Numbered from the stretch's first letter, positions 10,042 to 46,414 are shown. The stretch is DNA of 64,000 nucleotides from Bacteroidota bacterium (GCA_049317525.1 JBMOIC010000002.1:67912-131911), one strand, 5' to 3'. Notes: a model not told the origin generated them from the sequence alone. A program made the numbers and translations.

Positions 10042-10063
10042 ATACCTATAATAATAAAATAAT

Positions 10064-11005
10064 TTATTTTAATTTAAATGATATTGGAACTGATAACCAA
10101 CACGCAATTGGTTTTCCATTTTGTAATGCGGGAAGAAATTGAGATTTCATAACCGCATCCCCTGCAGATTTATTGAATAATTCTGAATCAGTTATTTCTA
10201 CGATAAACTTTTTGGCTTTTCCATTTTTTCTAATTAATACTCTTAATGAAACCTTACCTTCTATTCCTGCTTTTTTTGCTAATTCTGGATAAACAAGATT
10301 ACTTTGTATGAGGGCGCCATCTACAAAGGGTTGCTTATTTACTGCAATAGTTTCATCAATAGTTGGATCTGGTTCTTTATCATCTTTAACTAAGAGTACA
10401 TGTTTTTTTCTGATATCAATATTGGAAGGATCTATCTTTAATGCATCTTCATAATGCATTCTGGCTGCATCTCCATTATTCTTTTGCATGGCTATACTTG
10501 CTAAAGAAGCTGATGCTTGCCATAATCTACTATTTAACTTCTTGGCTTCAAGATAACTTTTTTCAGCTTCTACAGATTTTCCAGATGCCAATAATCCATC
10601 TGCATATGCTAAATGATTCCAAGGGTCTTTTTCATTTGCTTTTAAAGCTTTCAATAAAAATGTAATTGCAGATTTATAATCTTTCTTTCTAGTAAAAAGT
10701 TGGCCTATTTTTCTATCTATGCCATAATTTGCTTCTTGAATCTTGCTTGCATTTTTATACAATATTAATGCAGAATCAAGTTTATTAACTTCAATATATA
10801 TGTCACCTGCCAATAATAAAATATCAGCATCTTTTAATTGATCTTTGAGATTACTCTGAATTAATGAATAAGCTTTTGTATAATCTTTACTATTGAAAGC
10901 TTTCTTAACAGCATCAATTGAACCATACATTGGTAATGTTAGTACAATTGATACAATAAGTACTTGTAACTGCAGAGCAAATGAATGATAGTGTTTAGTA
11001 TGCAT
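10064..11005 (-). CDS. TPR-repeat protein with a C-terminal TonB-C (energy transducer) domain
   Basis: TPR repeats are followed by …YPELAKKAGIEGKVSLRVLIRKNGKAKKFIVE…SVPISFKLK, which is the typical TonB C-terminal fold signature. Confidence 0.7.
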   Translation of the reverse strand: MHTKHYHSFALQLQVLIVSIVLTLPMYGSIDAVKKAFNSKDYTKAYSLIQSNLKDQLKDADILLLAGDIYIEVNKLDSALILYKNASKIQEANYGIDRKIGQLFTRKKDYKSAITFLLKALKANEKDPWNHLAYADGLLASGKSVEAEKSYLEAKKLNSRLWQASASLASIAMQKNNGDAARMHYEDALKIDPSNIDIRKKHVLLVKDDKEPDPTIDETIAVNKQPFVDGALIQSNLVYPELAKKAGIEGKVSLRVLIRKNGKAKKFIVEITDSELFNKSAGDAVMKSQFLPALQNGKPIACWLSVPISFKLK

Positions 11006-11006
11006 A

Positions 11007-11936
11007 TTAGTTCTCTTGAATCAAATTATACTTTGCAAAAACAGGAATTAATCCGCAATCTAAAAGTACTTTTTGAATATTTGGGTCTTTTTCCATAAAT
11101 GTTGCAAAGCCCCAAGGCAAATTTTGTCTTTTTTCTTTAAGATATGCAATAATAGGTATTCCAAAAGGATATTTTTTTTGTATAATAAATCCTTGATGTA
11201 CAATTTGAGGTGGAATACGTTTTCCTGTAGAATCTATATATCCTATTCTTAATGATTTTAATAATGGATTCTTTTGCACATACGATAAGTATCCTAATCC
11301 AATAGACTTCCCTTTCAAGACTTCCAACACGATTGAATCTCTAGAATCAATAAATGTTGCGATATTTTTTGCTGAATGTGATAATTGCGAAAAAAAGGAT
11401 ATTGCATTTGAATATTCTGAAGATTGTGCGCCCGGTATAAGTAAGATTGGTTCAGAACTTATTTTCTGAAAATACATTGATAATCTAATTTTCCCAGAAA
11501 TATAATCAGTTAATTGATTCATATTTAGTGTATCGATTGGATAATCTTTAGATACAAAAAAAACTAGACCATCATTCGCAATATGTATTTTTTGGAAGGA
11601 AATTCCAGACTGTTTTAAAAGTGAATCCTCATCAGGTAAATAATTTCTAGCTACAATAATACTCTTTGTCTTTTCCGAAAATAACTCAGCCATTGATGAT
11701 CTGGCATTTTTGGAAAACAAGGTTATATGTGCATCAGGAAATGCCTTTTTATATATAGGCATTGCATTGTTAAAACAAGTATAGATTGACTCGTCGCAAT
11801 ACACTGTGTCAGAACCTCTTAATGGAGATTCTATTGTTGAATCTGATTGCTTATCATTTGTTTCACAACTGATGAGCATTATAGATAACACTAGTAGAAG
11901 TATACACCAATTATATGTTTTCTTCATGTTTTTCAC
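11007..11936 (-). CDS. PstS-like periplasmic substrate-binding domain lipoprotein (the accessory protein usually found in Bacteroidetes TonB/Exb loci)
   Basis: Lipoprotein signal (LISCETN) and a PBP-like fold pattern. Its position after exbB-exbD-exbD-tonB matches the conserved FCB-group locus architecture. Confidence 0.5.
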   Translation of the reverse strand: MKNMKKTYNWCILLLVLSIMLISCETNDKQSDSTIESPLRGSDTVYCDESIYTCFNNAMPIYKKAFPDAHITLFSKNARSSMAELFSEKTKSIIVARNYLPDEDSLLKQSGISFQKIHIANDGLVFFVSKDYPIDTLNMNQLTDYISGKIRLSMYFQKISSEPILLIPGAQSSEYSNAISFFSQLSHSAKNIATFIDSRDSIVLEVLKGKSIGLGYLSYVQKNPLLKSLRIGYIDSTGKRIPPQIVHQGFIIQKKYPFGIPIIAYLKEKRQNLPWGFATFMEKDPNIQKVLLDCGLIPVFAKYNLIQEN

Positions 11937-12153
11937 TAACTGAATCTTGATTTTTCTTTATAAAATCTTTCCATTTTAACAAATACATTATTAAACGGAC
12001 AGAACCTACAGCAATCATAACCCAACCAATCCATTGAACTGAATCATTAGATTCTGTTGGTAAATTAAGCCAATTTGAAACAATAAAGACTCCCATAAGA
12101 ATTGTAATAACTCTTATAGAAATATTTAAATAATAAAATAAAGTAGTATTCAT
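11911..12153 (-). CDS. small two-TM membrane protein, hypothetical
   Basis: 80 aa with two hydrophobic helices. It overlaps the downstream PstS-like gene start by ~26 nt and follows a terminator-like hairpin. Confidence 0.3.
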   Translation of the reverse strand: MNTTLFYYLNISIRVITILMGVFIVSNWLNLPTESNDSVQWIGWVMIAVGSVRLIMYLLKWKDFIKKNQDSVSEKHEENI

Positions 12154-12229: not shown

Positions 12230-13003
12230 TCAACGTAAGCGAAACACAATAGGAATAACAACCCACACTTCAACAGGTTGACCATTTTGGGTAGCAGGTG
12301 GAAAGACCTGTGCCATAATAGCTTTTACAGCTGCAGGGTTTAATAACTCAGATGCAGTTTCTTCAACAATTGTTCTACCTGGTTTAGGCCTTCCGTCTTT
12401 GCCTATAAGAACTTTAATACTAACACGTCCTTCCACACCAGCCCTACGTGCCATTTCTGGATATTCGACTCTTCTTTGTAAATCAGGTAATACCCTTGAA
12501 ACAACTTCATTGTAATCTTGATCTGTTACAATAAATTCATCTGGACTAGGTTCTTCTTCTTTTTGAACAGATAAACCAGCATCTGTTGGTAAATCATCGA
12601 TATTTATTTGTTGCTGATCACCAATTTGTGAAGATGAAGTTGATATTTCATCTACAGATGCAAATATTTGATCAGGAGCTACCATAGCATCTGGAACAGG
12701 AACTGGATTTCCAGCTTGCGCTAAAGTACCAGTTACAATAATCTCAGGTGGCGGTGGCGGTGGCGCAGCATCTTGATTAACAGGTGTATCAATCATATCT
12801 AAACGGGCCATACTTCTATACGGTGTTTTATATACCTTTTTTTCTCTTAAAGAGAATGCAAATACCGCTATTATGCAAATGATTAAAAAGGCCATTACAT
12901 AATAGAATCCACGTAATGTAAATACCCTGATAATCTTTTTTAATTCATAAGCACCGTAGTCTTTTGAAGATATTACAAGTGTATCTGGAGTTGATAACAT
13001 CAT
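12230..13003 (-). CDS. tonB: energy transducer TonB
   Basis: N-terminal TM anchor, a Pro-rich spacer (APPPPPPEI) and a C-terminal TonB domain (…YPEMARRAGVEGRVSIKVLIGKDGRPK…VVIPIVFRLR). Confidence 0.8.
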   Translation of the reverse strand: MMLSTPDTLVISSKDYGAYELKKIIRVFTLRGFYYVMAFLIICIIAVFAFSLREKKVYKTPYRSMARLDMIDTPVNQDAAPPPPPPEIIVTGTLAQAGNPVPVPDAMVAPDQIFASVDEISTSSSQIGDQQQINIDDLPTDAGLSVQKEEEPSPDEFIVTDQDYNEVVSRVLPDLQRRVEYPEMARRAGVEGRVSIKVLIGKDGRPKPGRTIVEETASELLNPAAVKAIMAQVFPPATQNGQPVEVWVVIPIVFRLR

Positions 13004-13542
13004 AAGCCTATAATCTCCTCTTTATCTTTATCAGTTAAAGGAGCAATAGTAAACTTTCGTTCACGATTTAATTTTTCTGCTTGTAATGCTTGGGTAATTT
13101 TAATTTCTGCAAGATTTAATTCATCAAGGATATTAACTACAGTTTCGAAATTGACATTATCATCAATCTTGAGTACGGTAATTAATTCATTTTTTAAATC
13201 AAGATTTGATTTAATTGATTGATTTCTTAAATCTTTTAGAACTATTGGCTGAGGTGCATCTTTTGCTTGATTGTAAAAGATTTTACCATCGCCACGAACT
13301 CGAATAGTAAACAATTTTGATTCTGCAACTTCTACATCTTCAGTTTCAGGAGGAACTGCCATGTCCATAATTTGTGGCGTTGTTAACGTCGTTACGAACA
13401 TAAAGAAAGTAAGCAAAAGAAAAGTAATGTCTACTAGAGGAGTCATATCAATACGGAAACCAACGCGTTTTTTTGCTTTGCGTTTACTGTGTTTTCCGCG
13501 CTTCGGCCTACCGCCGCCGCCTAGTTCTCCACCACCGGCCAT
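13000..13542 (-). CDS. exbD: biopolymer transport protein ExbD/TolR
   Basis: The MTPLVDITFLLLTFFM TM motif is present. It overlaps the tonB start by 4 nt. Confidence 0.85.
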   Translation of the reverse strand: MAGGGELGGGGRPKRGKHSKRKAKKRVGFRIDMTPLVDITFLLLTFFMFVTTLTTPQIMDMAVPPETEDVEVAESKLFTIRVRGDGKIFYNQAKDAPQPIVLKDLRNQSIKSNLDLKNELITVLKIDDNVNFETVVNILDELNLAEIKITQALQAEKLNRERKFTIAPLTDKDKEEIIGL

Positions 13543-13551
13543 AACGTTCTC

Positions 13552-14121
13552 CTATTGCTCTTTGTCTGTTACAAAATTAAACTGAGTTTGACGACTTCTT
13601 CTCATCACTTCCATAACATCAGCTATCCATTTAAATCGTACTCTACGATCAGCATCAACAGCAAACTTTAAACTAGCTTGTTCAGCTTTAGATTTTTTCA
13701 TAGCATTAAAAGCTTTAGACTGTGTTCTTGTAGCTTTTACTAATGCTTCTAATTCATCAACTTTAATAGTTTTAATCTGTGATTTTGAAAGTTCTTTCCT
13801 TCCCGGTGTTAACCATTCAGAAAGGCTAGGATCTTCTTTTACCATATTCCATAATTCAGGGTTAGACACAGAATAATAATATGCTGTATCAGCTACTTTT
13901 GTAGAATCTAAAGCTATTTTGATAACCGCAACATCCTTTTCAGGAAGTTTAGAAGTATCAGCTGCAGATTTGGGCCTTTTTATCTGAAATTTTTGTTCAT
14001 TGTCGGCATCAGACTTAAATTTTGCCGTGAACATGAAAAATGTTAAAAGAAGAAAAGTAATATCTACAAGAGGGGTCATGTCTATAACAAAACCCGTCCG
14101 TTTCATTTTCACCTTTGGCAT
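13552..14121 (-). CDS. exbD: biopolymer transport protein ExbD/TolR (second copy)
   Basis: Same MTPLVDITFLLLTFFMF motif, tandem with the other exbD. Confidence 0.8.
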   Translation of the reverse strand: MPKVKMKRTGFVIDMTPLVDITFLLLTFFMFTAKFKSDADNEQKFQIKRPKSAADTSKLPEKDVAVIKIALDSTKVADTAYYYSVSNPELWNMVKEDPSLSEWLTPGRKELSKSQIKTIKVDELEALVKATRTQSKAFNAMKKSKAEQASLKFAVDADRRVRFKWIADVMEVMRRSRQTQFNFVTDKEQ

Positions 14122-14172
14122 TATTCACTCTCCAATTGACTGAGAATTGCGGGATAATGATTCATGCCGCTA

Positions 14173-15024
14173 CTATTTCTTAACTTTAATTGTTAAAATT
14201 TCCATAACTGATAAAATTGCTTCATCAATCATATACACAAAATTGTCAACCTTAGTTGTAAAGAAATTAAAAGATAAAATCGATACAATGGCGGCTGCTA
14301 ATCCAAAAGCTGTATTATACAATGCTTCTGAAATACCAATAGATAAAGCTTGTGCTGATACCGCTCCACCACTTGCTCCAAGAGCAGCAAAAGAACGAAT
14401 CATTCCAAGAGTGGTACCTAATAATCCAACCATAGTTGAAACAGAAGCCACAGTAGAAAGAATAACTAGATTCTTCTCCAAAAGTGGAGTTTCCAAGTTT
14501 GTTGCTTCATCAATTGCTCTTTGAACTTCAGAAAGCTTCTTTTCTGAATCATATTTAGTATCATTTTCTAATTGTACATAACGCTCAAGAGCAGAACGTA
14601 CAATATTAGATAATGAGCCTTGCTGTTTGGCGCATGCTTCAATTGCATTGTTTACATTGCCAGATTCTAGATTTGTAGAAACTGTTTTTACAAATTCTCT
14701 TAGATCTCCATTACCTTGTGCTTTATTGATAAACAAATATCGTTCTACAATAAATGTGATTGCTATAAAAAGCATACCTAAAAGTGCTGCAACAAGTGGT
14801 CCACCAGTATGAATAGTACCCAAAGTGTTTAATGGTTCATGACGACCAAATGCATCCTTAAAATTTCCTGGGGCTCCCATGAATAATCCCCAAATTAAAT
14901 CTGCAATTGCTAGCCACAGAAAAACTACAAAGGAATTAAAAGAACGGAGCATTGCATAGCTGATTCCTGCTGCTGCAAACAAAAGAATACCGACGCCAAT
15001 AACGACGTATGAAAACTGATCCAT
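14173..15024 (-). CDS. exbB: MotA/TolQ/ExbB proton-channel protein
   Basis: Three TM segments with the conserved C-terminal region (…TTLGMIRSFAALGASGG…), immediately upstream of the exbD pair. Confidence 0.85.
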   Translation of the reverse strand: MDQFSYVVIGVGILLFAAAGISYAMLRSFNSFVVFLWLAIADLIWGLFMGAPGNFKDAFGRHEPLNTLGTIHTGGPLVAALLGMLFIAITFIVERYLFINKAQGNGDLREFVKTVSTNLESGNVNNAIEACAKQQGSLSNIVRSALERYVQLENDTKYDSEKKLSEVQRAIDEATNLETPLLEKNLVILSTVASVSTMVGLLGTTLGMIRSFAALGASGGAVSAQALSIGISEALYNTAFGLAAAIVSILSFNFFTTKVDNFVYMIDEAILSVMEILTIKVKK

Positions 15025-20551: not shown

Positions 20552-21100
20552 TTATGCATTTTTTATTGGTGAAAGAAATGATTTCATTCTCATTCCATAA
20601 TGAATAAAAGAAATTATTAGCATGATGGAAGATAGTATATAACTAGCTTGAATATATATGTACAAAGAATCAACGAATGAACAGATTAAAGTAATTGCAA
20701 CTGTAATTACAGCAACTTTGCCTATATACGTAGATGGTAATACATAACCTAGTTTTCTGCTAGAAAGTAAGCCAGCAATCAAAATAGCTATGTCTCTTCC
20801 TAGTACTAATGCAATGTACCATATCGAAAGCTTACCAACTATCATTAGCGATATTGCAGCCGAACCAACAAGTATCTTATCTGCTAAGGGATCTAATATT
20901 TTCCCCCATTCAGAAATATCATTATTCATTCTAGCCAAAAATCCATCTAAAATATCGCTTATATATGCTAATAATGCCAATATCAGTAAAAGTGAATCCG
21001 ACCAATCATAAAGGATTCCAAAGCATACAGGAATTGCTAAAAGCAAACGTAATAAACTTATGATATTTGATAATGTAAAAAATCGGCTACTGTGCTTCAT
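20552..21100 (-). CDS. pgsA: CDP-alcohol phosphatidyltransferase, probably CDP-diacylglycerol--glycerol-3-phosphate 3-phosphatidyltransferase
   Basis: The DGFLAR…G…DPLADK CDP-OH transferase motif is present in a 182-aa multi-TM protein. The start codon overlaps the stop of the upstream gene (TAATG). Confidence 0.72.
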   Translation of the reverse strand: MKHSSRFFTLSNIISLLRLLLAIPVCFGILYDWSDSLLLILALLAYISDILDGFLARMNNDISEWGKILDPLADKILVGSAAISLMIVGKLSIWYIALVLGRDIAILIAGLLSSRKLGYVLPSTYIGKVAVITVAITLICSFVDSLYIYIQASYILSSIMLIISFIHYGMRMKSFLSPIKNA

Positions 21101-23388
21101 TAGCGTTGTATGATAATGAATGATGGATAATACATTTCATTATTAACTTTTAGCATATAATACCCATTTGGAACAAAGCTAGGTAATTGTGAATATATAT
21201 GCAGATTACTTTTTATAAGATCTAATGAATATATTTCACCTATTGGGCTTACTAGTGAAAGGCTATGTATATCCAATGATTGTTGTAGATAAAGATGTAA
21301 TGATTCTGTTACTGGATGAGGTGCAATCGTAAGGACTTTACCATATTCTGGAGGCATTTGTATCGAACCAATTGTGATTGGTAGAGTACAATTAGATATT
21401 ACTGAATCATTACTTTGATTAACATCACCAATCAATGGTAAAATTAAGGGTGAACATGTATCAGATATGATAAGAGTATCTGTCCATAATCCTGTTTTAT
21501 ATGGTGTAAAACAAATAGTAAATGTATATGCTTCACCTGGTTTTATCTGAATAGGAAATTGTGCTGGAGGTATAGAAAAAACAATATTATGTAATAGATA
21601 TGGTGATGGTATAAAAATATCCTGATTTGTGTTTTTATTTCTAATCGTTAATGGTATGCAAGAATCCTTGCCAAGAACCAATGTATCAAATGAAAATGAT
21701 GAAGAAAAAAATGATTCAATATTATTTTCTATTGAAAGAACTGCAATCGAAACAGTATCTGTGTAAAATTCACAACCATTTTGGTCTATCACCTTTAACC
21801 AGTATTCTCCTTGCTTATCAATAAACTTTTGCAAACTAGAATCTCCATCATTCCACTGATAATAAGAAAACCCACTAGGAGCAAGTAATTGTGTTTTTTC
21901 ATTTTTACATAACGATGTTTTTCCATTAACTGTAATTTTTGGATATACATTATCACTACGAATAATTGTAGGTGTATTAAATATATATTCACAACCATTT
22001 GTATCTATTACTTTAACAGAATAATTGCCAGACTTAGAAATTATTATTGAGGATTGTGTTTCTTTAGTAGACCACAAATAGGATTGAATAGGCCCTTTTA
22101 TTGTAGCTGATATTACTTCTTCTTTACATAAAATAGAATCTCCACTTAATTCTAAATATATGTTTTGAGATGGTAAATATTCAAAAAACAATGAATCTTG
22201 ATGCCATGTACATGAAGCATAATTATAGGATTGTAAATAATACCAATCTGAACTTTGAACAAGAATCTTATCCTCATTAGATATTTGATTGTTTTTATTA
22301 CCTTTATGCCATGAAAATTGAGAATATGTTCCTTTTGGAGCAGATAATGTAATTGAAGAACCAAAACAATAAGGTGGATTGGGTTTTTGAATCATAAATG
22401 AAGATTGTGTAGGTAGAATATATCGGTATACGCCTTCCCCCACTGCCCAGCCTGTAGTATCATTAATAAACCAGATATCATCAATATTTGCCGAACCAAT
22501 GCCACAATTCTTTTTTTCCCAGTTTTTACCACTATTACTTGTATAAAGCACTTCACCTTTATCTCCAGAAGCCCAGCCACGATTTTGATCTAAAAGATAA
22601 GCTCCAAACATTGCTTTATTCACTAATGTTGTATTCCAAGAACCACCACGATCAGTAGAAAATCTTAAAGATCCTGTTGTTTTATTGCCGCCCGAACAAT
22701 CTTCTCCTGCTGTTGGCAATAAAAAACTATTTCCTTTATTGGTTAATTCTTCTGTCCAATATTTAGGCCCAGAATAAGAAAGAACTGTCCAAATATCTCC
22801 TCCATTGATGGTTTTCCAAAGGACACCACTTGAAACAGCATATCCCAAACCATTTTTTTCATAGAGAATAATATCACTCATACCAGATTGATTTTCAAAA
22901 CCATAATTAATTTGCCAAGTTAATCCCCCATTTGTAGTTTTCATAAAGGTTTGATTGTCCATGCTACAACCACCCCCAACAACAAAACCATTATCATCAT
23001 CAACAAAATAACATCCCCATATTTGTGATACCGTAAATGGTGGAGTAATATCTTTCCAAGTAATTCCACCATCGATACTTTTATACACACCGCCTGGCCC
23101 AGAAACATAACCAACCATCTGCGAAGGAAAATGTACACTCTCTAGAAAAGGATTACCGAAAATTATCGCACCATTCCACGATTTCCCAGCATCAGTAGTT
23201 CTAAGAACTTTTCCATCAAAACCAGTAATCCAGCCATAATTAGGATTAGATGGTAAGAAAAACACATCTAAATAGTATGAATTACCAAAAGGAGATGGCA
23301 ATTGAACTTGTTCCCACTGAGCGTGAATAGCAATAACACTTGTAATTACAAGAAGTATATTGATAATTGCTTTAAAGAAAATATTCAT
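21100..23388 (-). CDS. large secreted protein with BNR (Ycf48/sialidase-like) repeats, SprB-type repeats and a T9SS C-terminal sorting domain
   Basis: Multiple S-x-D-x-G-x-(S/T)-W BNR repeats (TTDAGKSWN, TTNGGLTWQ, TINGGDIWT, STDRGGSWN, TSNSGKNWE). Two G-x-Y-x-VKVID-x-NGCE(Y/F) SprB-like repeats. The C-terminal ~70 aa (…GYYMLKVNNEMYYPSFIIIQR) is T9SS-CTD-like. The start was moved to the internal Met (MNIFFKAIINILLVITSVIAIHAQ) to give a proper signal peptide. The ORF track begins at 23439. Confidence 0.7.
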   Translation of the reverse strand: MNIFFKAIINILLVITSVIAIHAQWEQVQLPSPFGNSYYLDVFFLPSNPNYGWITGFDGKVLRTTDAGKSWNGAIIFGNPFLESVHFPSQMVGYVSGPGGVYKSIDGGITWKDITPPFTVSQIWGCYFVDDDNGFVVGGGCSMDNQTFMKTTNGGLTWQINYGFENQSGMSDIILYEKNGLGYAVSSGVLWKTINGGDIWTVLSYSGPKYWTEELTNKGNSFLLPTAGEDCSGGNKTTGSLRFSTDRGGSWNTTLVNKAMFGAYLLDQNRGWASGDKGEVLYTSNSGKNWEKKNCGIGSANIDDIWFINDTTGWAVGEGVYRYILPTQSSFMIQKPNPPYCFGSSITLSAPKGTYSQFSWHKGNKNNQISNEDKILVQSSDWYYLQSYNYASCTWHQDSLFFEYLPSQNIYLELSGDSILCKEEVISATIKGPIQSYLWSTKETQSSIIISKSGNYSVKVIDTNGCEYIFNTPTIIRSDNVYPKITVNGKTSLCKNEKTQLLAPSGFSYYQWNDGDSSLQKFIDKQGEYWLKVIDQNGCEFYTDTVSIAVLSIENNIESFFSSSFSFDTLVLGKDSCIPLTIRNKNTNQDIFIPSPYLLHNIVFSIPPAQFPIQIKPGEAYTFTICFTPYKTGLWTDTLIISDTCSPLILPLIGDVNQSNDSVISNCTLPITIGSIQMPPEYGKVLTIAPHPVTESLHLYLQQSLDIHSLSLVSPIGEIYSLDLIKSNLHIYSQLPSFVPNGYYMLKVNNEMYYPSFIIIQR

Positions 23389-23720
23389 ATAATATGTTTG
23401 GTATGTTATATATGCAAAACTATAATATAGACATGACATTAGCTTCAGTTTTTATTACTACTGAGGAATCATATGTATTTTTAACTATGTTATGTGTAGT
23501 TTGTAAAAAATACACCAGATATAATTTATCTTATGTTATTGTAAATACTAAAGGTAATTCTTATTTTACAAATGTTACTAAAGACACAAATGTACATATA
23601 TATAATTCAAAATATATACATGTATCATATCACATTAGTTAATGAGAATTATTGCTCTTTTTTTTGATTGTATGAGTATAATTCTCCATCGATTTTTCTT
23701 ATTTATATGGTAGAAAAATT

Positions 23721-25271
23721 ATGAAAAGAAGATCTTTCCTATCCTTTTTCATCCCTGATAATCAAAGTGATAAAGTAGAGAAACCCTTAAATGCAAGTAT
23801 TAATCCCTATACAAAGCCTTTAGATACTCTAACTGCTACTCATTTACTTAGACGCCTAAGTTTTGCCCCAAGCCCAGCTTTAGTAAAACAATTGATTGGT
23901 AAAACTGCATCTGAAGCAGTTTCACTGATATTGGGTAATGAAGAAATGCAGCCAACTGCTCCTAGCTGGATTAATACATCTACAGAGAATCCAAGAGGTG
24001 CAGATATCTATACTAGAAATGCAATCGAAGGAGGCTGGAGAAATCTTCAAGGGCAATTACAAACGTGGTGGCTTACAGCCATGCATAAAGAAACTTTACC
24101 TGCATCAGAGAAACTTACCCTGTTTTGGAGTAGTTTTTTTACAACAGAGTTTGTAAGTGATGATACATATATTCCACCTCAAATGCTGTATAGACAAAAT
24201 GCATTTATTCGAAAAAATAGATTAGGAAATTTTAAAGATTTTGTAAAAGATATCACTTTAGATCCATCAATGCTTGTGTATTTGGGGAATGTTCTAAACA
24301 TTAAAGGAAGACCAAATGAAAATTATGCAAGAGAATTAATGGAATTATATACGTGCGGTATTGGACATTATACCGAAGGTGATGTAAAAGAAGCAGCAAG
24401 AGTGTTAACTGGATGGAAAGTTGGAATGTTTAATGATGAGCCAGCCAAAAATGATATTTACAATACCTATTTTCACCCTCCAGATCATGATACTGGCTCT
24501 AAGCAATTTATGGGAATGCCAATCCCCTCAAGAGATGATATTGCAAATACAGAATATCTGGTAAAAGTAGAAGAGGTAAACGGTCTTATAGATATCCTTT
24601 TTGATGTACGAGCCGATGCTATTTCTAGATTTATAGCTAGAAAAGTGTATTTATTCTTTTTTTATAGCAATCGTGCTGTTGTAGATGAAGAATTTATCCA
24701 AAAAGCTGCCAAAGTGTTTAAAGATAACAAATTCGAAATCAGGCCTTTAATTGAAGTAATGCTTGGAAGTGAATTCTTCTTTAGTGAGTATATAAAAGGT
24801 GCTCAGATAAAATCCCCAGCTGAATTTGCATTAAGTATTTCTCGTCCACTCAATAAATATCAAGCCGATATGGCAAATGCATTAAAAGGTATGGATCAAG
24901 ATTTAATCGATCCTCCAAATGTTGCTGGGTGGGAAGCGCATCAAAAGTGGATTACAACGAAAACATATCCTAATAGAAAAGTATATATCGAGAACATCAT
25001 AAAAGCATTGACAGATGATGAATGCGTCAATTTTGTAAAAAGTTTTGATCAATATGATGATGCTGTAGAATTGGTAAAAAATATTCTTTCTATTTTACTT
25101 CCATTAGGAGTCTCTGATGGCTATAGAATGTATTTAACCGACGCAGTTCTGTTAAAAAATCAGCCTGCTTATGAATGGACAACCATGCTTAATTCAAAAG
25201 CTACGGTAGCGTTAAGAATTAAAGACTTATTAAATGATATAGTAAAAGCTCCTGATTTCCATCTCTGCTAA
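23721..25271 (+). CDS. DUF1800-family protein
   Basis: The N-terminal HLLRRLSFAPSP region matches the DUF1800 HLLRRAGFG motif. It is ~516 aa and sits immediately upstream of a DUF1501 protein, which is the canonical pairing. Confidence 0.68.
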   Translation: MKRRSFLSFFIPDNQSDKVEKPLNASINPYTKPLDTLTATHLLRRLSFAPSPALVKQLIGKTASEAVSLILGNEEMQPTAPSWINTSTENPRGADIYTRNAIEGGWRNLQGQLQTWWLTAMHKETLPASEKLTLFWSSFFTTEFVSDDTYIPPQMLYRQNAFIRKNRLGNFKDFVKDITLDPSMLVYLGNVLNIKGRPNENYARELMELYTCGIGHYTEGDVKEAARVLTGWKVGMFNDEPAKNDIYNTYFHPPDHDTGSKQFMGMPIPSRDDIANTEYLVKVEEVNGLIDILFDVRADAISRFIARKVYLFFFYSNRAVVDEEFIQKAAKVFKDNKFEIRPLIEVMLGSEFFFSEYIKGAQIKSPAEFALSISRPLNKYQADMANALKGMDQDLIDPPNVAGWEAHQKWITTKTYPNRKVYIENIIKALTDDECVNFVKSFDQYDDAVELVKNILSILLPLGVSDGYRMYLTDAVLLKNQPAYEWTTMLNSKATVALRIKDLLNDIVKAPDFHLC

Positions 25272-25308
25272 ATTAAACGAGTATACAAAGAACATTAAGA
25301 GAAATAAT

Positions 25309-26901
25309 ATGACAATACATCGACGCACTCTCCTTAAAGCTGGCGCTGCAGCTGGTGCATTAGCTACATTTGGTAATATTCCAGTTTTTGCATTAAATCC
25401 AGCAAAAATGTTGGGTACAAATGTTATGAATGATGATTCTATTCTTATTATTATTCAATTGTTTGGTGGTAATGATGGGTTGAATACGATTATTCCTGCA
25501 GATGATCCTAATTATTATGCTATAAGACCTAATATTGCGGTTAAAAAAGACCAAGCAAAACGCATTTTTAATTCTAAAGTGTATTTCCATCCAGCTTTAG
25601 TAAATAATGTATATAAAAATGGTTTCTTAGGTTTAATTGAAGAAGGAAGATTAGCTGTTATACAAGGATCAGGATATGAAAATCCAAATCTCTCCCATTT
25701 TAGATCTACGGATATTTGGTTAAGCGGCATTAATTCTTCAGAACCTGATGCTAAACTGAGTGACGGATGGTTAGGACGATACTTTTCATCACAATTACCG
25801 AATTTTCCTATTGAAGTGCCGGATCATCCTTTGTGTATTCAATTAGGCGGTTCTTTATCCATGCTATTTAAAAGCCCAAAAGGTGATATGGGGATTGCTT
25901 TATCCTCACCTGATGAATTCTTTAAGAATGGACAAGGTTCTTCAACTGGTCGCGATATCATACAAGGCAATACTCCTTATGTAGAAGAATATAATTTTAT
26001 TCAAGCAATTGCAAAACAAAGTGATACATATTCTACGGTTGTAAAATCAGCATATGACAAAGGTAAAAATTCACTCAATTATGCTGCAGGATTTCCAGCT
26101 CAAATGGCTACAATTGCTAGGCTAATTTCAGGTGGTTTAAAAACCAAAGTATATATGGCTTATTTAGGTGGTTTTGATACACATGTTCAGCAACAGAATA
26201 CAGATAATTCAGGATTACATCCCAATTTAATGGCTTCTTTAGCCACAGGTATTAGCCAGTTTATGGCAGATGCTTTATCTCAAGGATTTGCTAATAAAGT
26301 AGTTGGGCTAACAGTTTCTGAATTTGGTAGAAGGCCTTATGAGAATGGATCAAATGGTACAGATCATGGAACTACATCTGTACAATTTGCATTTGGCAAT
26401 AGAGTTCAAGCTAATGTATTTGGAAATGACCCGGACTTACAGAACTTTGATAGAAATGGCGATCTAGACTTTGATTTACAAAGAAATATAGATTATAGAA
26501 GAGTATATGCAGAAATATTACAGACATGGTTTGGGGCTACCAAAGAAGAAGTAACAGAGATTTTTGGTGAAAGAGTAGTTCCCCTGCCCTATTTACAGCC
26601 TCCTATAAGTTATGTTGCAGATTCATTTGCTGGTGAAAATAATAATAAGCTTCGTTATTCATGTAATCAATCTAATGGACAAAATGGACATGTTCATTTT
26701 GAATTAAAAAATCCTGCAACACTAGAAGTCAATATCTATGATATTATAGGTAAGTACTCTTCAACAGTGTATAACTCAGAAGCCATACCTGGACACTATG
26801 CAATACCTCTACACACTGAGTCTCTTCAAAATGGAACTTATATATGTGAAGTCCTTGCAGATCAAAACCGAGAAATACTCACTTTTAGCATAGTTCATTA
26901 A
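25309..26901 (+). CDS. DUF1501-family (sulfatase/alkaline-phosphatase-like) protein with a twin-arginine signal and a T9SS C-terminal sorting domain
   Basis: Tat signal MTIHRRTLLKAGAAAGALATFG and the DUF1501 core (IIQLFGGNDGLNTIIPADD…YAIRPNIA). The C-terminal ~75 aa (LEVNIYDIIGKY…GHYAIPLHTESLQNGTYICEVL…) matches the T9SS type-A CTD pattern. Confidence 0.75.
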   Translation: MTIHRRTLLKAGAAAGALATFGNIPVFALNPAKMLGTNVMNDDSILIIIQLFGGNDGLNTIIPADDPNYYAIRPNIAVKKDQAKRIFNSKVYFHPALVNNVYKNGFLGLIEEGRLAVIQGSGYENPNLSHFRSTDIWLSGINSSEPDAKLSDGWLGRYFSSQLPNFPIEVPDHPLCIQLGGSLSMLFKSPKGDMGIALSSPDEFFKNGQGSSTGRDIIQGNTPYVEEYNFIQAIAKQSDTYSTVVKSAYDKGKNSLNYAAGFPAQMATIARLISGGLKTKVYMAYLGGFDTHVQQQNTDNSGLHPNLMASLATGISQFMADALSQGFANKVVGLTVSEFGRRPYENGSNGTDHGTTSVQFAFGNRVQANVFGNDPDLQNFDRNGDLDFDLQRNIDYRRVYAEILQTWFGATKEEVTEIFGERVVPLPYLQPPISYVADSFAGENNNKLRYSCNQSNGQNGHVHFELKNPATLEVNIYDIIGKYSSTVYNSEAIPGHYAIPLHTESLQNGTYICEVLADQNREILTFSIVH

Positions 26902-26910
26902 GGTTTACTT

Positions 26911-27951
26911 GTGTGTAAGAAATTTGTAAGTATGCTTTCTATCTTTCTAATACTTTTATTAGGATGTGGGATTTCACATACTTATGCACAAAATACGCCT
27001 AAAACTATTCCAGCTGAATTTAGCCATATCGATTCTAAAAATGCTCCACTATATCTAAAACCATTAATTACAACTATTCATCAAAGTTTAACTTCAAGTT
27101 TATTCACTGAAGCTCATTATCAAGATGATTTTTCTTTAGGTTTTGATATTTCAATAGCTGCGATGCAAATTCCAGAAAATGCTAAAAATTATACATCAAG
27201 CATTCCTGATATTTATGTAAATAATACAAAAGAATATCAAACACTAACCGGAACTGGAATACTTAATCCAATTACAATTCAACAACCAACAATTTATGGT
27301 GGCACTTCAACGCCATTATTTGTAGTTGGACAAAACCAAACAGCAAAATCTTTAGCTTCACTGGACGGAAAAAATATTGATGCTATAATGGGATTACCTA
27401 TCATTCAGTTATCTCTCAATCTTCCTATTTATTCTCAAGGTAAATTTTGCGCAGCTTATTATAATCAAGGAGATGTATCTTTATCATTTCTAAGAGTTGG
27501 TTATAATCAAAGAATAGATAAGCTAATCAAAGGTTTGCTTCATGATCAAACAATGGCAATTGCATTGCATGGATCATTTAATGAGATCACTATGGCATTT
27601 GGTGATTCTATTAAATCGAATTTTTCGTCACTTGCTATTGGAGTACATGCAAGTAAGAAAATCAACAAATCATTTATGATTTATGCTGGATTTCAATGGG
27701 AGGATATTCAGGGAGGATTTGATGGTGCAAGAAAAAAAGTAAATGGCCAAATAGATAGTCCATATCCAGAAGTAAAAAACAATGAACATTTGCAATTTAA
27801 TTTTATGTCTGATAATTCATATAAAATGATTCTAGGATTAAAAGCCAAGTATGGAATTATTGATTTTTTCACAGATATTTCTTTAGCATCCCAAACAATG
27901 ATAAATTCGGGTTTTTCTGTATACTTTTTTCGTGATACTGATTTCTACTAA
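26911..27951 (+). CDS. hypothetical secreted/outer-membrane protein
   Basis: Signal peptide (…GCGISHTYAQN). The amphipathic β-rich composition ends in aromatic residues (…FFRDTDFY). It is 9 nt after the DUF1501 gene. Confidence 0.5.
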   Translation: MCKKFVSMLSIFLILLLGCGISHTYAQNTPKTIPAEFSHIDSKNAPLYLKPLITTIHQSLTSSLFTEAHYQDDFSLGFDISIAAMQIPENAKNYTSSIPDIYVNNTKEYQTLTGTGILNPITIQQPTIYGGTSTPLFVVGQNQTAKSLASLDGKNIDAIMGLPIIQLSLNLPIYSQGKFCAAYYNQGDVSLSFLRVGYNQRIDKLIKGLLHDQTMAIALHGSFNEITMAFGDSIKSNFSSLAIGVHASKKINKSFMIYAGFQWEDIQGGFDGARKKVNGQIDSPYPEVKNNEHLQFNFMSDNSYKMILGLKAKYGIIDFFTDISLASQTMINSGFSVYFFRDTDFY

Positions 27952-28574
27952 TGAGAATACATTTTACATATAGTTTTTTTTGTGTCACTATGATATGTTG
28001 TCTTATATCTTGTGATACATTACCTACAGTATTTCAAGAACCAAGAGCTCAATATGTTATTGATACTATTGAAGTTATCAATAGTTTTCAGACACCTTTT
28101 TCTGCTGTAACTTCATATAATTTTATTGATGATAATGGAACTATAGGTAATTTTTACAAATCGAATAGAGACAAAATTAAAGAAGCATATATTTATAGTA
28201 TCGCTTATTCTATTGATTCACTTGCCTTTGACCCACTTAGGGATTCGCCATTTACAACAAATCAACAACTGTTTAAACAATTAGAATTCGATTCTATTAA
28301 TATCTTTATACAAGTAAAAGATGATTTAACAAAAGAGTGGAAAGTACCAGTACGATTTGCTACTTTTGATCAGATAAGAGTTTCTAATTATTATAAAACT
28401 CCGCAACTAGTTGTTTTACCAGATTCATTAAGTAAAAGCTTAGGTACAGATCTACGCCTGAACCCAGAAATCAGAATTATGAAAAAGATATCTAAGCCAG
28501 TTCAATCTTCGGGGTATTTTAAGCATTTTGGATCAAGGATTCAGATAGCGATTGGCTTCACATTAAATTATTAA
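27951..28574 (+). CDS. hypothetical lipoprotein
   Basis: Lipobox LISCDT. The start overlaps the upstream stop (TAATG). Confidence 0.5.
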   Translation: MRIHFTYSFFCVTMICCLISCDTLPTVFQEPRAQYVIDTIEVINSFQTPFSAVTSYNFIDDNGTIGNFYKSNRDKIKEAYIYSIAYSIDSLAFDPLRDSPFTTNQQLFKQLEFDSINIFIQVKDDLTKEWKVPVRFATFDQIRVSNYYKTPQLVVLPDSLSKSLGTDLRLNPEIRIMKKISKPVQSSGYFKHFGSRIQIAIGFTLNY

Positions 28575-28582
28575 TCTCAAAT

Positions 28583-30403
28583 ATGATACAGTGTATTTTA
28601 GCATTTCTCTTGTGTTTTACATGTCAACTTCAAGCGCAAAAAGTTAATAATGATGAAGTATACACATTAGCAATTAGTTATGAGAAATCTGGAGATACCA
28701 AAAATGCCGCGCGTGTATATCAGGAATTATATGCTAAGGATAATACTAATAGTAATTATCTATACGGCGTTTCTAGAACTCTACAAAGTTTACAAAGATT
28801 TCCAGAATTACTACCAATTATAGAAGAGTTTACAATTCGATTTCCAACAATAGAACACTTTTCTTTATGTTCATTTATTGCTAAAAAATCAGGTTTTACT
28901 GAAAAAAGCAATACATATTGGGAGCAATCTTTACAATTAGTGTCCAAACTTCCCAATGATATAGTAAAAGATAATGCAATTCGATTAATTGGAAAGTATC
29001 AAACAGATGCGCAATCAGGTAATAATGCAATTCTAACCTATAAAAAAGGAAAAGAGCTACTTAAGAATCAACTAGGATTATATTCAGATGAATTATCGCA
29101 ATTATATGCTTTAATCAAAGATTATGAATCTGGCACAAAAGAGGTATTAGAACTATTCTCACTTAATCAAAATTATGCTTTAGTTCAGGGTAGGCTTTCT
29201 GCATATTTAACCACAATTGAATCAATCGAACATATAGACAAACAACTTTCTAAACAGGCTGAATTACAACATTCATATGCATTATATAAATTATATCAGT
29301 GGTTTTTAAGGGAAACAAAACAATATGATAAAGCTTTGTCTTTGGTGAAGATAACTGAGAAATTATTTGGTTCAAAAGGAAGAGACATAGCAGATTTTGC
29401 TGATTTATGTAATAAAGATGGCATATTAGATATTGCAAATGAAGCATATTCTTTGTTGATAGATCTAGGTAAATCTTCACCATTTTATTCAAAAGCAATT
29501 TTTGGTTATGCTACTGTTTTAGAGCAAAAATTAAATATTCTTAAAAAAACATTTCCAGATTCTATCCCAAAAGATGATATACATTATATTATAAGTAAAT
29601 ATGATGATATTGCACAATCATCACCCAATACAGCCATTGCAAGTGAATGTCTTTTTAGAAAATCTCAATTACAAAGTAATTTTTTGGATGACAATGTTTC
29701 TGCAAAAAAAACATTAGAACTGATTATCCAACGATATACTCATCATTCGATTTCAGTGTTGGCTGCTAATGAACTTGCATTATTACTGATTAAAGACAAT
29801 GATAGTACTGAAGCAAAAAAGATACTTCTACATAATATCACAAAAGCATCTCTTAATCCAAAAGAAACCGATAGATCTCAGTTTATTTTAGCTGAGATGA
29901 TGTATTTTGAAGGCAATATAGATTCTGCTATTGTGTTTTTATTACCAATTTCAGGAAAACCAGAATCTGATATTGCTAATGATGCTCTTGAACGATTATT
30001 GTTTATTGAAGAGAACAAACAATATGTATCAGACTTAATCATCTTTGCAAAAGCAGAGCATTATGAAAGAATGAGGAAATATTCTGAAGCTTTACCAGAA
30101 TTTAAGAAGATTACTGCCGAAGGAGATTTATCAGAATTAAGTCAAATTAAAATTGCTGAAGTTTATTCAAAATTGAAAAATATCAATAAAGCAATTGAGG
30201 AATATTCCAGGTTTTTGACACTGTATCCAGAAAGTATTCGAACTGATAAAGTATTGTATACAATTGGAGAGATGAATATTCTTCAAGGGGAAAAAGAAAA
30301 GGCTATCATATCATTTACTGATATTTTGATTAGATATCCTAATTCTATGTATGTAAAAAAATCGAGAGAAATCATCCGTAAACTAAGAGGTGATGTACAT
30401 TAA
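28583..30403 (+). CDS. secreted TPR-like helical-repeat protein
   Basis: Signal peptide (…CQLQAQK) followed by 606 aa of TPR-like repeats. It is the last gene of the DUF1800/DUF1501 operon. Confidence 0.6.
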   Translation: MIQCILAFLLCFTCQLQAQKVNNDEVYTLAISYEKSGDTKNAARVYQELYAKDNTNSNYLYGVSRTLQSLQRFPELLPIIEEFTIRFPTIEHFSLCSFIAKKSGFTEKSNTYWEQSLQLVSKLPNDIVKDNAIRLIGKYQTDAQSGNNAILTYKKGKELLKNQLGLYSDELSQLYALIKDYESGTKEVLELFSLNQNYALVQGRLSAYLTTIESIEHIDKQLSKQAELQHSYALYKLYQWFLRETKQYDKALSLVKITEKLFGSKGRDIADFADLCNKDGILDIANEAYSLLIDLGKSSPFYSKAIFGYATVLEQKLNILKKTFPDSIPKDDIHYIISKYDDIAQSSPNTAIASECLFRKSQLQSNFLDDNVSAKKTLELIIQRYTHHSISVLAANELALLLIKDNDSTEAKKILLHNITKASLNPKETDRSQFILAEMMYFEGNIDSAIVFLLPISGKPESDIANDALERLLFIEENKQYVSDLIIFAKAEHYERMRKYSEALPEFKKITAEGDLSELSQIKIAEVYSKLKNINKAIEEYSRFLTLYPESIRTDKVLYTIGEMNILQGEKEKAIISFTDILIRYPNSMYVKKSREIIRKLRGDVH

Positions 30404-31164
30404 TCGAAAGGATTTTCATCTGGATCTTCTAGTGTATCTCTTTCATGATAAGTAGATCTTTCTGAAAATATAGAATGGATATATCTGATTCCCCCAACAA
30501 CAAGATACAATAACATACTGGGGAAAATCAAAGCCCCTTTACTGAGGAAAGAGCCAATAAAACCAGAGAATACAAGCAATGAAAATATTGGACGAGATTT
30601 TAGTAAGGAAATGCTTGGTCTTGGGAGATTATCATACTTTATTGTACTTATCATTGCTAAAGAAACTATTGCAATAATAACTGTAGTGCTAATTACAGTA
30701 TAATCATCGGGAATAATATGTAATGGCAAAAAGAAAACAATATATGAAACTAAAGTAACAGCACTTGCCGGAATTGGCATTCCACTAAAAAACAACTTAT
30801 CCTCAAAACCTTTAAGCTGAACATTAAATCTTGCTAGCCGATAAACACCTGCTAAAACAGGTAATGAAGCAATAAGAACACCTGTAGAATTCCATTCATA
30901 CATCATACTTTTATATAACATAAATGAAGGGGCTAATCCAAAGGAAACAGCATCACATAATGAGTCTAATTCAACTCCTAATTCACTTGTTGATTTGGTT
31001 AACCTAGCCATCATTCCATCTAAAGCATCAAATATTCCAGCGATAAAGATACATATTGCAGCCCTATCATAATTACCATCGGAAATATGAATAATTGCAG
31101 TAAAACCTGAGAACAAATTAGCTAAGGTAAATAAATTTGGAATGATTGAACGTGTAATTCTCAT
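30400..31164 (-). CDS. pssA: CDP-diacylglycerol--serine O-phosphatidyltransferase
   Basis: The CDP-OH transferase motif DALDGMMAR…G…DSLCD is present in a 254-aa multi-TM protein of PssA-like size. Confidence 0.78.
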   Translation of the reverse strand: MRITRSIIPNLFTLANLFSGFTAIIHISDGNYDRAAICIFIAGIFDALDGMMARLTKSTSELGVELDSLCDAVSFGLAPSFMLYKSMMYEWNSTGVLIASLPVLAGVYRLARFNVQLKGFEDKLFFSGMPIPASAVTLVSYIVFFLPLHIIPDDYTVISTTVIIAIVSLAMISTIKYDNLPRPSISLLKSRPIFSLLVFSGFIGSFLSKGALIFPSMLLYLVVGGIRYIHSIFSERSTYHERDTLEDPDENPFD

Positions 31165-45901: not shown

Positions 45902-46414
45902 TTAAAATGTTATTGTAATAGCATTTATTACACTATTATACTTAACTGGAAATGAAGTTAATGAAGTTGCACTTCCAGAAGTAGGTTGTTTCACTACAAT
46001 GCCTGATTCCGGATTAAATTCAGCTCCATGGCATGCACAATATATATTTGAGTATTCTGTGTCTGGTGGTTGAACGGAACAACCTTGATGTGAGCATATA
46101 CTTGTAACAGCTAAAAAAGAGGATTCAGTTAATCGAATAATTAAGATGTCTTTATTATTATTTTGATTAGGTACATTTATATAGGCAGCCCCACCTACTT
46201 TACTTAATTCTTCTAATCCAGATGTATTCAAAGGAATATCTATTTGAGTACCATTTGATGAGTTTCCAGAAGGTGTTTCATTTGATTCACAAGATTGTAT
46301 GAAACCAGCCAAGCTTCCAGCACAGAATATGATTCCAGTATTTTGTAAAGCATTGGAAATGAATTGTCTTCTTGTTGGAATTACTGATAATTGGGGTACA
46401 ATGTTATCTTTCAT
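45902..46414 (-). CDS. Tat-signal Rieske [2Fe-2S] protein (high-potential type with the disulfide cysteines)
   Basis: Twin-arginine motif TRRQFISNAL followed by a hydrophobic segment. Rieske box I CSHQGC and box II CACHGAEF are present. 170 aa. Confidence 0.8.
   Translation of the reverse strand: MKDNIVPQLSVIPTRRQFISNALQNTGIIFCAGSLAGFIQSCESNETPSGNSSNGTQIDIPLNTSGLEELSKVGGAAYINVPNQNNNKDILIIRLTESSFLAVTSICSHQGCSVQPPDTEYSNIYCACHGAEFNPESGIVVKQPTSGSATSLTSFPVKYNSVINAITITF

Follow-up and report, generated by a model that had tools for sequence, protein, structure and literature searches.

The locus considered here lies in a window of 64,000 nucleotides, by which we mean the whole stretch of DNA that was analyzed, from a Kapaibacterium (Bacteroidota). 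Five ORFs follow one another on one strand with spacers of 37, 9, -1 and 8 nt, and both the ORFs and the spacers match exactly the coordinates given in an initial annotation of the sequence. The second ORF (25309-26901, + strand) codes for a DUF1501 protein with an N-terminal leader, a catalytic domain and a C-terminal β-sandwich. The features of the region are as follows:

23721..25271, + strand: DUF1800 gene (516 aa), conserved as the partner of DUF1501
25309..25392, + strand: twin-arginine (Tat) leader of DUF1501, MTIHRRTLLKAGAAAGALATFGNIPVFA
25393..26652, + strand: catalytic domain of DUF1501, with the α/β fold of the alkaline-phosphatase/sulfatase superfamily
26653..26901, + strand: C-terminal β-sandwich of DUF1501 (~80 aa), a predicted divergent T9SS type-A C-terminal domain (CTD)
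26911..27951, + strand: DUF6588 gene (gene 3; 346 aa; PF20230, 68.1 bits)
27951..28574, + strand: lipoprotein gene (gene 4; 207 aa; lipobox LISC)
28583..30403, + strand: TPR gene (gene 5; 606 aa; signal peptide and TPR families)
21100..23439, - strand: divergently transcribed BNR/Ycf48-like Ig-domain gene (779 aa; PF14870, 51 bits)

The initial annotation had read the five genes as an operon of secreted proteins. The common strand and the tight spacing agree with an operon, and genes 3-5 are probably co-transcribed with the DUF pair in this genome, but scans of positions 23300-30700 for promoters, terminators and the Bacteroidota -7 motif gave counts no higher than those of shuffled sequences, with no instance of TAnnTTTG on the + strand upstream of gene 1. 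Scans of the window for tRNAs and Rfam families came back empty. As for secretion, export signals are present on the products of genes 3, 4 and 5 and a Tat leader on DUF1501, but the DUF1800 protein has no signal peptide, either by hydrophobicity or by HMM.

The conserved part of the cluster is the widespread DUF1800-DUF1501 pair only. The DUF1800 protein matches its Pfam family (PF08811) with 292.9 bits against a cut-off of 26.1 over HMM positions 1-417 of 419, while DUF1501 matches PF07394 with 62.3 bits against 27, only HMM positions 220-387 being aligned; the latter family is also matched by 50 of 50 DUF1501 orthologs. Of 80 GTDB species loci, 73 have the two genes next to each other, separated by a median of 36 nt. 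These scores and the adjacency bear out the pair as it was originally named, and the functional unit is a two-gene cassette of DUF1800 followed by DUF1501. The same gene order and tight linkage characterize the DUF1800-DUF1501 pairs known from Proteobacteria and others (PMC5122149), and Planctomycetes and Verrucomicrobia have a close known relative of the cassette in their PSCyt/PSD-DUF1501 modules (PMC3542564); about one-third of the DUF1800 orthologs also match the planctomycete PSD2 domain. Twin-arginine motifs on DUF1501 were noted in both of these studies (PMC5122149, PMC3542564), such a leader being common to the known DUF1501 proteins and to that of the cassette. Our literature search found no study on the function of DUF1501 or DUF1800, and sequence searches of the PDB with DUF1501, DUF1800 and gene 3 returned no significant match.

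The DUF1501 protein displays the α/β core fold of the alkaline-phosphatase superfamily, which along with its Pfam score supports its earlier placement among the sulfatases and alkaline phosphatases, and it is structurally nearest to the NPP/PafA phosphodiesterase branch. Its invariant residues comprise D56, S129, H130, S133, T134, D135, D290, H292, D352 and H353, including the invariant stretch S129-H130-F-R-S-T134-D135. Going by this conservation, the Asp/His and Ser/Thr residues are plausible candidates for metal ligands and the nucleophile. Within the alkaline-phosphatase/sulfatase superfamily, the protein is a predicted hydrolase or transferase that depends on a metal bound at a putative site. 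PhoD and PhoX are Tat-dependent, metal-dependent phosphoesterases that are exported folded and serve in environmental nutrient scavenging; DUF1501 would resemble them as a metal-dependent phosphoesterase exported folded by Tat. PhoX is a β-propeller and PhoD has a metallophosphatase fold; therefore, neither is homologous to DUF1501, and we know of no T9SS tail on either of them.

The DUF1501 leader carries the Tat motif HRRTLLK followed by AGAAAGALATFGNIPVFA, has an uncharged run of 22 aa and ends in a likely signal-peptidase site after a conserved P-x-x-A. All 78 complete N-termini of the orthologs have the RR, in keeping with the twin-arginine leader originally proposed, and the orthologs have a consensus of the form RRxF[LI]K (RRxFLK-like). 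The Kyte-Doolittle hydrophobicity of the h-region is 1.61, as against 2.5 to 2.9 for neighboring Sec leaders. When the whole protein is scanned, the Tat HMMs are borderline (TIGR01409, 16.8 vs. a cut-off of 16.7; PF10518, 21.5 vs. 22.7), but the isolated 42-aa leader lies above both cut-offs (22.1 and 26.5, respectively). Residues 1-38 are disordered in the structure model. Tat-type RR leaders are also found on the DUF1501 proteins of Ralstonia, Agarilytica and Rhodobacter.

At the other end of the protein, the initial annotation had recognized a well-formed T9SS type-A CTD. The window sequence itself scores below both cut-offs (TIGR04183, 15.4 vs. 23; PF18962, 19.5 vs. 27), so that "well-formed" does not apply to it; the assignment is recovered at the level of the family, where 40 of 50 DUF1501 orthologs match TIGR04183 and PF18962 (E ≤ 0.01; best about 5e-8), and the consensus tail reaches 36.6 and 37.2 bits for the family and 31.6 and 32.8 bits for the window clade, passing both cut-offs in each case. 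A homologous tail stands at the extreme end of all 79 of the 79 complete C-termini, and it is modeled as a seven-strand β-sandwich (residues 449-528 of 530; pLDDT ~90). Given this support from the family and from the modeled β-sandwich, the C-terminal domain of DUF1501 is a predicted divergent T9SS type-A CTD. It resembles the CTDs of canonical type-A cargo of the FCB group (gingipains, ChiA and SprB) in being a terminal β-sandwich of ~70-80 aa, and its pattern (PNP, ..I.LYD..G+.., ..SG.Y.C.V...) matches TIGR04183/PF18962 near full length. In contrast, canonical T9SS cargo has a Sec signal peptide (PMC8047123, PMC9251779), whereas DUF1501 has a Tat leader. The tail is absent from the DUF1501 of Ralstonia, Vibrio, Agarilytica, Rhodobacter and Miltoncostaea; it is an add-on, because the proteobacterial DUF1501 proteins inspected (395-458 aa) lack any such additional β-sandwich at the C-terminus. 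When all window ORFs were scanned with a CTD HMM built for the family, DUF1501 itself was the only match, because such a model is too specific. As a separate observation, the divergently transcribed BNR/Ycf48-like protein possibly has a divergent CTD of its own: the C-terminal consensus of 7 orthologs scores 21.7 against the TIGR04183 cut-off of 23 and aligns to the DUF1501 CTD by hhalign with P 2e-4.

Neither export machinery is represented in the window, the 64 kb containing no Tat component and a scan of 45 ORFs of 150 aa or more yielding no T9SS gene; therefore, their presence in the organism is deduced from relatives and taxonomy. Use of Tat by the organism is likely because an RR leader is present on a Rieske protein encoded in the window. 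In 22 of the 80 related species, the cassette is adjoined by full-length PorZ (268.9 bits vs. 260), which is found in these relatives only and not in the window.

We propose, as a moderately probable reading, that the locus centers on a DUF1800-DUF1501 cassette whose DUF1501 protein is exported by Tat and then by the T9SS, and that the three downstream genes are non-conserved neighbors. DUF1501 would fold in the cytoplasm, where it may also take up metal, and would cross the inner membrane via Tat by means of its canonical twin-arginine leader, which we posit to be ancestral to the whole DUF1501 family. After cleavage of the leader at the conserved P-x-x-A site, the folded periplasmic protein would be recognized through its C-terminal type-A sorting domain, an addition that may have occurred in the Kapabacteria/Ignavibacteria lineage, and the T9SS would carry it over the outer membrane for release or surface attachment. 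Dependence of DUF1501 export on both Tat and the T9SS is what we infer. The closest mechanistic precedent is offered by the phospholipases C PlcH and PlcN of Pseudomonas aeruginosa, which Voulhoux et al. are said to have shown in 2001 to undergo Tat export and then type II secretion, i.e., export in folded form by Tat followed by handover to a system leading from the periplasm to the outside. Their outer-membrane step, however, uses the T2SS and a conformational signal, whereas that proposed for DUF1501 uses the T9SS and a discrete C-terminal domain, and they have no DUF1800-like partner. We know of no experiment in which a Tat substrate left the cell through the T9SS. The combination of a Tat leader and a T9SS type-A CTD on one DUF1501 protein occurs in at least 78 species. 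That it is unusual, as had been remarked at the outset, accords with reviews that give T9SS cargo as Sec-only (PMC8047123, PMC9251779); T9GPred requires "no Tat signal" of the T9SS cargo that it predicts, and our literature search found no report of a Tat-dependent T9SS cargo.

Two other readings of the DUF1501 protein bear on one or the other of its signals. It could be an ordinary periplasmic Tat substrate in which the β-sandwich is an Ig-like binding or stabilizing domain, at least in the diverged lineage of the window. The sub-threshold scores of the window CTD fit this view, as do the loss of the PNP motif in it (CNQSNGQNG), the weak alternative matches of the tail to the FlgD_ig and DUF3244 β-sandwiches and the lack of a T9SS gene within the window. 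We nevertheless consider it unlikely: the domain keeps its extreme C-terminal position throughout the complete orthologs, the consensus of the window clade itself passes both CTD cut-offs, the tail has its best secondary matches in the CTDs of T9SS-dependent M36 and M6-like proteases, and PorZ is present in relatives. Alternatively, the RR leader might serve Sec, or both pathways, making DUF1501 a conventional Sec-then-T9SS cargo, in line with the sub-threshold whole-protein score for Pfam TAT_signal, the L instead of F at RR+2 in the window leader and the Sec-type export of 102 of 102 experimentally known T9SS cargos (T9GPred preprint). This appears very improbable in the face of an invariant RR with its RRxF[LI]K consensus, an h-region of weak hydrophobicity with many Ala, Gly and Thr residues, a basic c-region residue in many orthologs (PLYAK, PLRAF, PVKAF), the scores of the isolated leader above both Tat HMM cut-offs and the status of the Tat leader as a family-wide trait across phyla (PMC3542564).

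A further reading concerns the cluster as a whole. Gene 3 codes for a DUF6588 protein (cut-off of 27 for PF20230; HMM positions 5-317 of 319) with an N-terminal signal peptide, for which a word-indexed homolog search retrieved its own-species cluster only. The gene 4 lipoprotein, whose lipobox is LISC, has no family match and is a near-orphan with 4 clusters among 1.84 billion representatives. Gene 5 combines a signal peptide with TPR repeats, and its C-terminal TPR region is CpoB/YbgF- or BamD-like at sub-threshold scores (TIGR02795, 65 bits, <90; TIGR03302, 55 bits, <81). While the export signal, lipoprotein and TPR assignments of the initial annotation hold for these genes, it had also seen in the five genes one dedicated surface machine for degradation or acquisition, in which a putative OMP, a lipoprotein and a TPR scaffold join the enzyme pair. 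The tight spacers on one strand, the lack of terminator-like sites between the genes, the export signals on all three downstream proteins and the presence of genes 3 and 4 3′ of the DUF pair in the nearest relative (L001) too would suit such a machine. However, the downstream genes show no co-conservation with the pair. The DUF6588 ortholog and the lipoprotein gene that travels with it adjoin the pair in just three of 88 loci (L001, L009 and L010), both genes being limited to the window species and the relative nearest to it. An ortholog of the TPR gene is adjacent in only nine loci, all of the closest clade (L001, L003, L010-L015 and L028), in which housekeeping genes keep their synteny as well; in L001, two other genes stand between it and the pair. 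Downstream of the pair, other lineages carry PorZ, Laminin_G/Ig giants, an amine oxidase or DUF4382. The dedicated five-gene system is hence not upheld, and we give it little credence; genes 3-5 are recent or syntenic neighbors instead of conserved components. The TPR gene was also considered as a specific partner and rejected, as its distribution is common to the neighboring coaE and pssA-like genes, which cluster in exactly those seven loci of the TPR-gene set that are GTDB loci (L010-L015 and L028).

Within the cassette, DUF1800 may serve DUF1501 as an accessory or specificity partner. DUF1800 is an all-α protein without a solved structural relative, and its N-terminus (MKRRSFLSFF) contains an invariant RRxF[FL] motif that is not accompanied by a hydrophobic core. 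We rejected a normal Tat signal for this protein, the h-region having ~8-10 residues and no HMM match. DUF1800 has a Sec leader in Ralstonia and a lipoprotein leader in Agarilytica, whereas here the RR occurs without a hydrophobic core. One extension of the Tat-then-T9SS route, which we regard as quite unlikely, is that DUF1800 and DUF1501 assemble in the cytoplasm, cross the inner membrane via Tat as a hitchhiker complex and then rely on one CTD, that of DUF1501, for passage through the T9SS. The RRxF[FL] peptide of DUF1800 would then be a second TatC-docking or chaperone-docking motif. If true, this would amount to piggyback secretion of a folded hetero-oligomer by the T9SS, of which we know no description.

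The pairing of a twin-arginine leader with a type IX tail, as seen in DUF1501, is not described in the literature searched, both descriptions and computational predictions of T9SS cargo having so far been limited to Sec-dependent proteins. In the present case, a large and conserved family, spread over at least 78 Kapabacteria/Ignavibacteria species, would represent an ancestrally Tat-dependent enzyme fused to a T9SS sorting domain, and it allows a direct test of whether the T9SS, like the T2SS, accepts proteins that are already folded when they cross the inner membrane. Predictors that exclude Tat leaders would miss real T9SS candidates of this kind. A surface or extracellular location, if true, would be a first localization clue for one clade of the very abundant DUF1501 and DUF1800 families, and would in the case of DUF1501 point to a predicted extracellular phospho- or sulfo-ester substrate.

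The five genes previously described at 23721-30403 are located exactly as claimed, all on the forward strand and separated by spacers of 37, 9, -1 and 8 nt. With their divergently transcribed neighbor they are:

21100-23439, reverse strand: BNR/Ycf48-like protein with Ig-like domains, 779 aa
23721-25271, forward strand: gene 1, DUF1800 protein, 516 aa (PF08811, 292.9 bits)
25309-26901, forward strand: gene 2, DUF1501 protein, 530 aa (PF07394, 62.3 bits)
26911-27951, forward strand: gene 3, DUF6588 protein, 346 aa, GTG start, signal peptide (PF20230, 68.1 bits)
27951-28574, forward strand: gene 4, lipoprotein, 207 aa, lipobox LISC
28583-30403, forward strand: gene 5, TPR protein, 606 aa, signal peptide

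The stop of gene 5 lies in a 4-nt overlap with the end of a convergent gene. The window has a G+C content of ~31%, and promoter- and terminator-like sites around genes 1-5 do not exceed their frequency after shuffling, leaving the spacing as the sole basis of the operon label. Gene 4 is a near-orphan: profile scans assign it to no family, and among 1.84 billion representative proteins just four clusters resemble it. Its position is always behind the DUF6588 gene; in the window the two genes share 1 nt. The C-terminal part of gene 5 is CpoB/YbgF- and BamD-like, with scores below the cut-offs of those models.

The comparison covered 88 loci, of which 80 come from GTDB species and the other 8 from exact-protein look-ups. 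In 73 of the 80 species loci the gene immediately upstream of DUF1501 is DUF1800, and the spacer between them has a median of 36 nt. Behind the pair, genes 3 and 4 occur solely in the window's own species (loci L009, L010) and in the relative nearest to it (L001, 68% identity). The clade after that, at 57 to 59% identity (L003, L011-L015, L028), has the TPR gene directly behind DUF1501; the BNR gene, FtsY and carbamoyl-phosphate synthase upstream and a pssA-like gene and coaE downstream are also syntenic, so that the TPR gene is distributed just as its housekeeping neighbors are. Further out the downstream genes differ, being PorZ (22 loci), an FAD amine oxidase (14), Laminin_G_3/Ig-like giant proteins (12) or DUF4382 (10). 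The dedicated five-gene surface degradative or acquisition system of the initial annotation is thus not borne out, and the conserved unit is the two-gene DUF1800-DUF1501 cassette. The cassette also occurs at 49 to 56% identity on MAG contigs labelled Patescibacteria, Chloroflexota, Hyphomicrobiales or Bradyrhizobiaceae (L020, L026, L034, L035, L039, L045, L050, L056, L078), labels that probably reflect mis-binning or mislabelling.

The closest structural relatives of DUF1501 are Xanthomonas NPP (16.7), ENPP6 (16.1), PafA (16.0), PhoK (15.3), choline sulfatase (15.1) and MCR-1 (14.9), with which Foldseek is consistent (E ~1e-4). Its invariant residues, namely D56, S129-H-F-R-S-T-D135, D290/H292 and D352/H353, would fit a candidate metallo-hydrolase active site; the literature searched nowhere assigns the enzyme a function.

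The Tat leader proposed for DUF1501 holds up. Scanned in the whole protein, the Tat models are borderline (TIGR01409 16.8 vs 16.7; PF10518 21.5 vs 22.7), and the first 42 residues alone exceed both cut-offs (22.1 and 26.5 bits, respectively). R5 and R6 are conserved without exception across 50 orthologues, and all 78 complete N-termini from the 80 GTDB species loci begin with an M-K-R-R-x-F-L-type motif. Hydrophobicity in the h-region is low (maximum Kyte-Doolittle value over 12 aa 1.61, as against 2.5 to 2.9 in the Sec leaders of genes 3-5 and the upstream gene), and many orthologues have a basic residue within the c-region. Tat-type RR leaders on DUF1501 from Ralstonia, Agarilytica and Rhodobacter, and likewise in published analyses (PMC5122149, PMC3542564), argue that Tat targeting is an ancestral trait of the family. 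Predicted signal-peptidase cuts expose an N-terminal Gln in gene 3 (TYA↓QN, 26980-26995), gene 5 (LQA↓QK, 28630-28645) and the BNR protein (IHA↓QW, 23370-23385), as they mostly do in close-clade DUF1501 orthologues (FA↓QNP), a predicted pattern matching the Bacteroidetes 'Q-rule' (PMC5837995).

DUF1800, for which the model is confident and all-α (pLDDT 89, pTM 0.88), bears the core of the Tat consensus, M-x-R-R-x-F-[FL], in 50/50 orthologues and 69/73 GTDB loci (23721-23790 in the window). However, its uncharged run after the RR has a median of 10 aa versus 23 aa in DUF1501 and lacks a hydrophobic core, and the TAT_signal models do not match it even at E<=1. Whereas the DUF1800 proteins of Ralstonia and Agarilytica have a Sec and a lipoprotein leader, respectively, those of the window clade have the RR motif without an h-region. 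We consider it unlikely that DUF1800 is co-exported with DUF1501 and then secreted piggyback.

The T9SS type-A C-terminal sorting domain (CTD) of DUF1501, earlier called well-formed, is recognized at the family level but is weaker in this copy, which has lost the PNP motif and falls below both cut-offs (TIGR04183 15.4 vs 23; PF18962 19.5 vs 27). A homologous tail is present in 79/79 complete orthologue C-termini; 40 of 50 orthologues match both models at E<=0.01 (best about 5e-8), and the consensus scores 36.6 and 37.2 bits for the family and 31.6 and 32.8 bits for the window's own subclade (TIGR04183 and PF18962, respectively). Next after these models, the tail best matches CTDs from M36 and M6-like proteases that depend on the T9SS, and in the AlphaFold model (pLDDT 80, pTM 0.84) residues 449-528 form a seven-strand β-sandwich (pLDDT ~90). 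The proteobacterial DUF1501 proteins inspected (395 to 458 aa) end without this tail, which points to its accretion within the Kapabacteria/Ignavibacteria lineage. Full-length PorZ convergently adjoins the cassette in 22 of the 80 related species (NF052228, 268.9 vs 260), e.g., at 9753-12029 (reverse strand) of L034 and 9781-12024 (reverse strand) of L004, with 20 further loci; this could be plain synteny or hint at a functional link with the T9SS attachment complex. Its presence in these relatives indicates that a T9SS exists in the clade. The C-terminus of the BNR protein, whose true start is probably M18 (MNIFFK...), looks like a divergent T9SS CTD, with a seven-orthologue consensus of 21.7 bits against the TIGR04183 cut-off of 23 and an hhalign P of 2e-4 against the DUF1501 CTD.

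The closest loci, with 98% identical DUF1501, are in a Candidatus Kapaibacterium MAG (Bacteroidota, FCB group) and the complete 2.49-Mb chromosome OZ123195.1 ('Bacteroidota bacterium'). The remaining window has housekeeping content, including Suf, ExbBD/TonB, FtsY, a 2-oxoacid dehydrogenase E2 subunit, a TonB-dependent receptor, Mdh, ProS, FtsK, KdsA, LptC and adenine deaminase; none of the 45 scanned window ORFs (150 aa or longer) encodes a Tat or T9SS component. Behind an ExbB-ExbD-ExbD-TonB cluster come a TonB_C/TPR fusion (a second TonB_C protein) and a 570-aa TPR protein (10064-11005 and 12230-15024, reverse strand). With TPR proteins this common in the genome, any inference from the TPR gene beside DUF1501 is weakened. 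Three further features are:

45902-46414, reverse strand: small Rieske [2Fe-2S] protein with a typical twin-arginine leader, PTRRQFISNALQNTGIIFCAGSLAGF
46430-47641, reverse strand: ORF of 403 aa, TTG start, without a Pfam or NCBIfam match
59419-60930, reverse strand: ORF of 503 aa, without a Pfam or NCBIfam match

The RR leader of the Rieske protein suggests a functioning Tat pathway in the organism.

The T9SS moves folded proteins, and a Tat-then-T9SS route is mechanistically plausible. The DUF1800/DUF1501 pair and the Tat leader are already known and the CTD belongs to a recognized class of signal; the two signals on one protein are not described in the literature searched. In one review the T2SS is tabulated as 'Sec/Tat' and the T9SS as 'Sec' (PMC8047123), in another T9SS substrates are said to bear a Sec signal peptide (PMC9251779), and T9GPred, from 102 experimental substrates, demands 'no Tat signal' (10.1101/2023.03.31.535141); the initial annotation rightly called such a route unusual, and its overall observation was largely correct in the ORFs, spacers and Tat leader, overstating the CTD of this copy. 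Judged from these conserved sequence signals, the Tat-plus-T9SS architecture of DUF1501 is an undocumented but conserved one, real at the level of the family.
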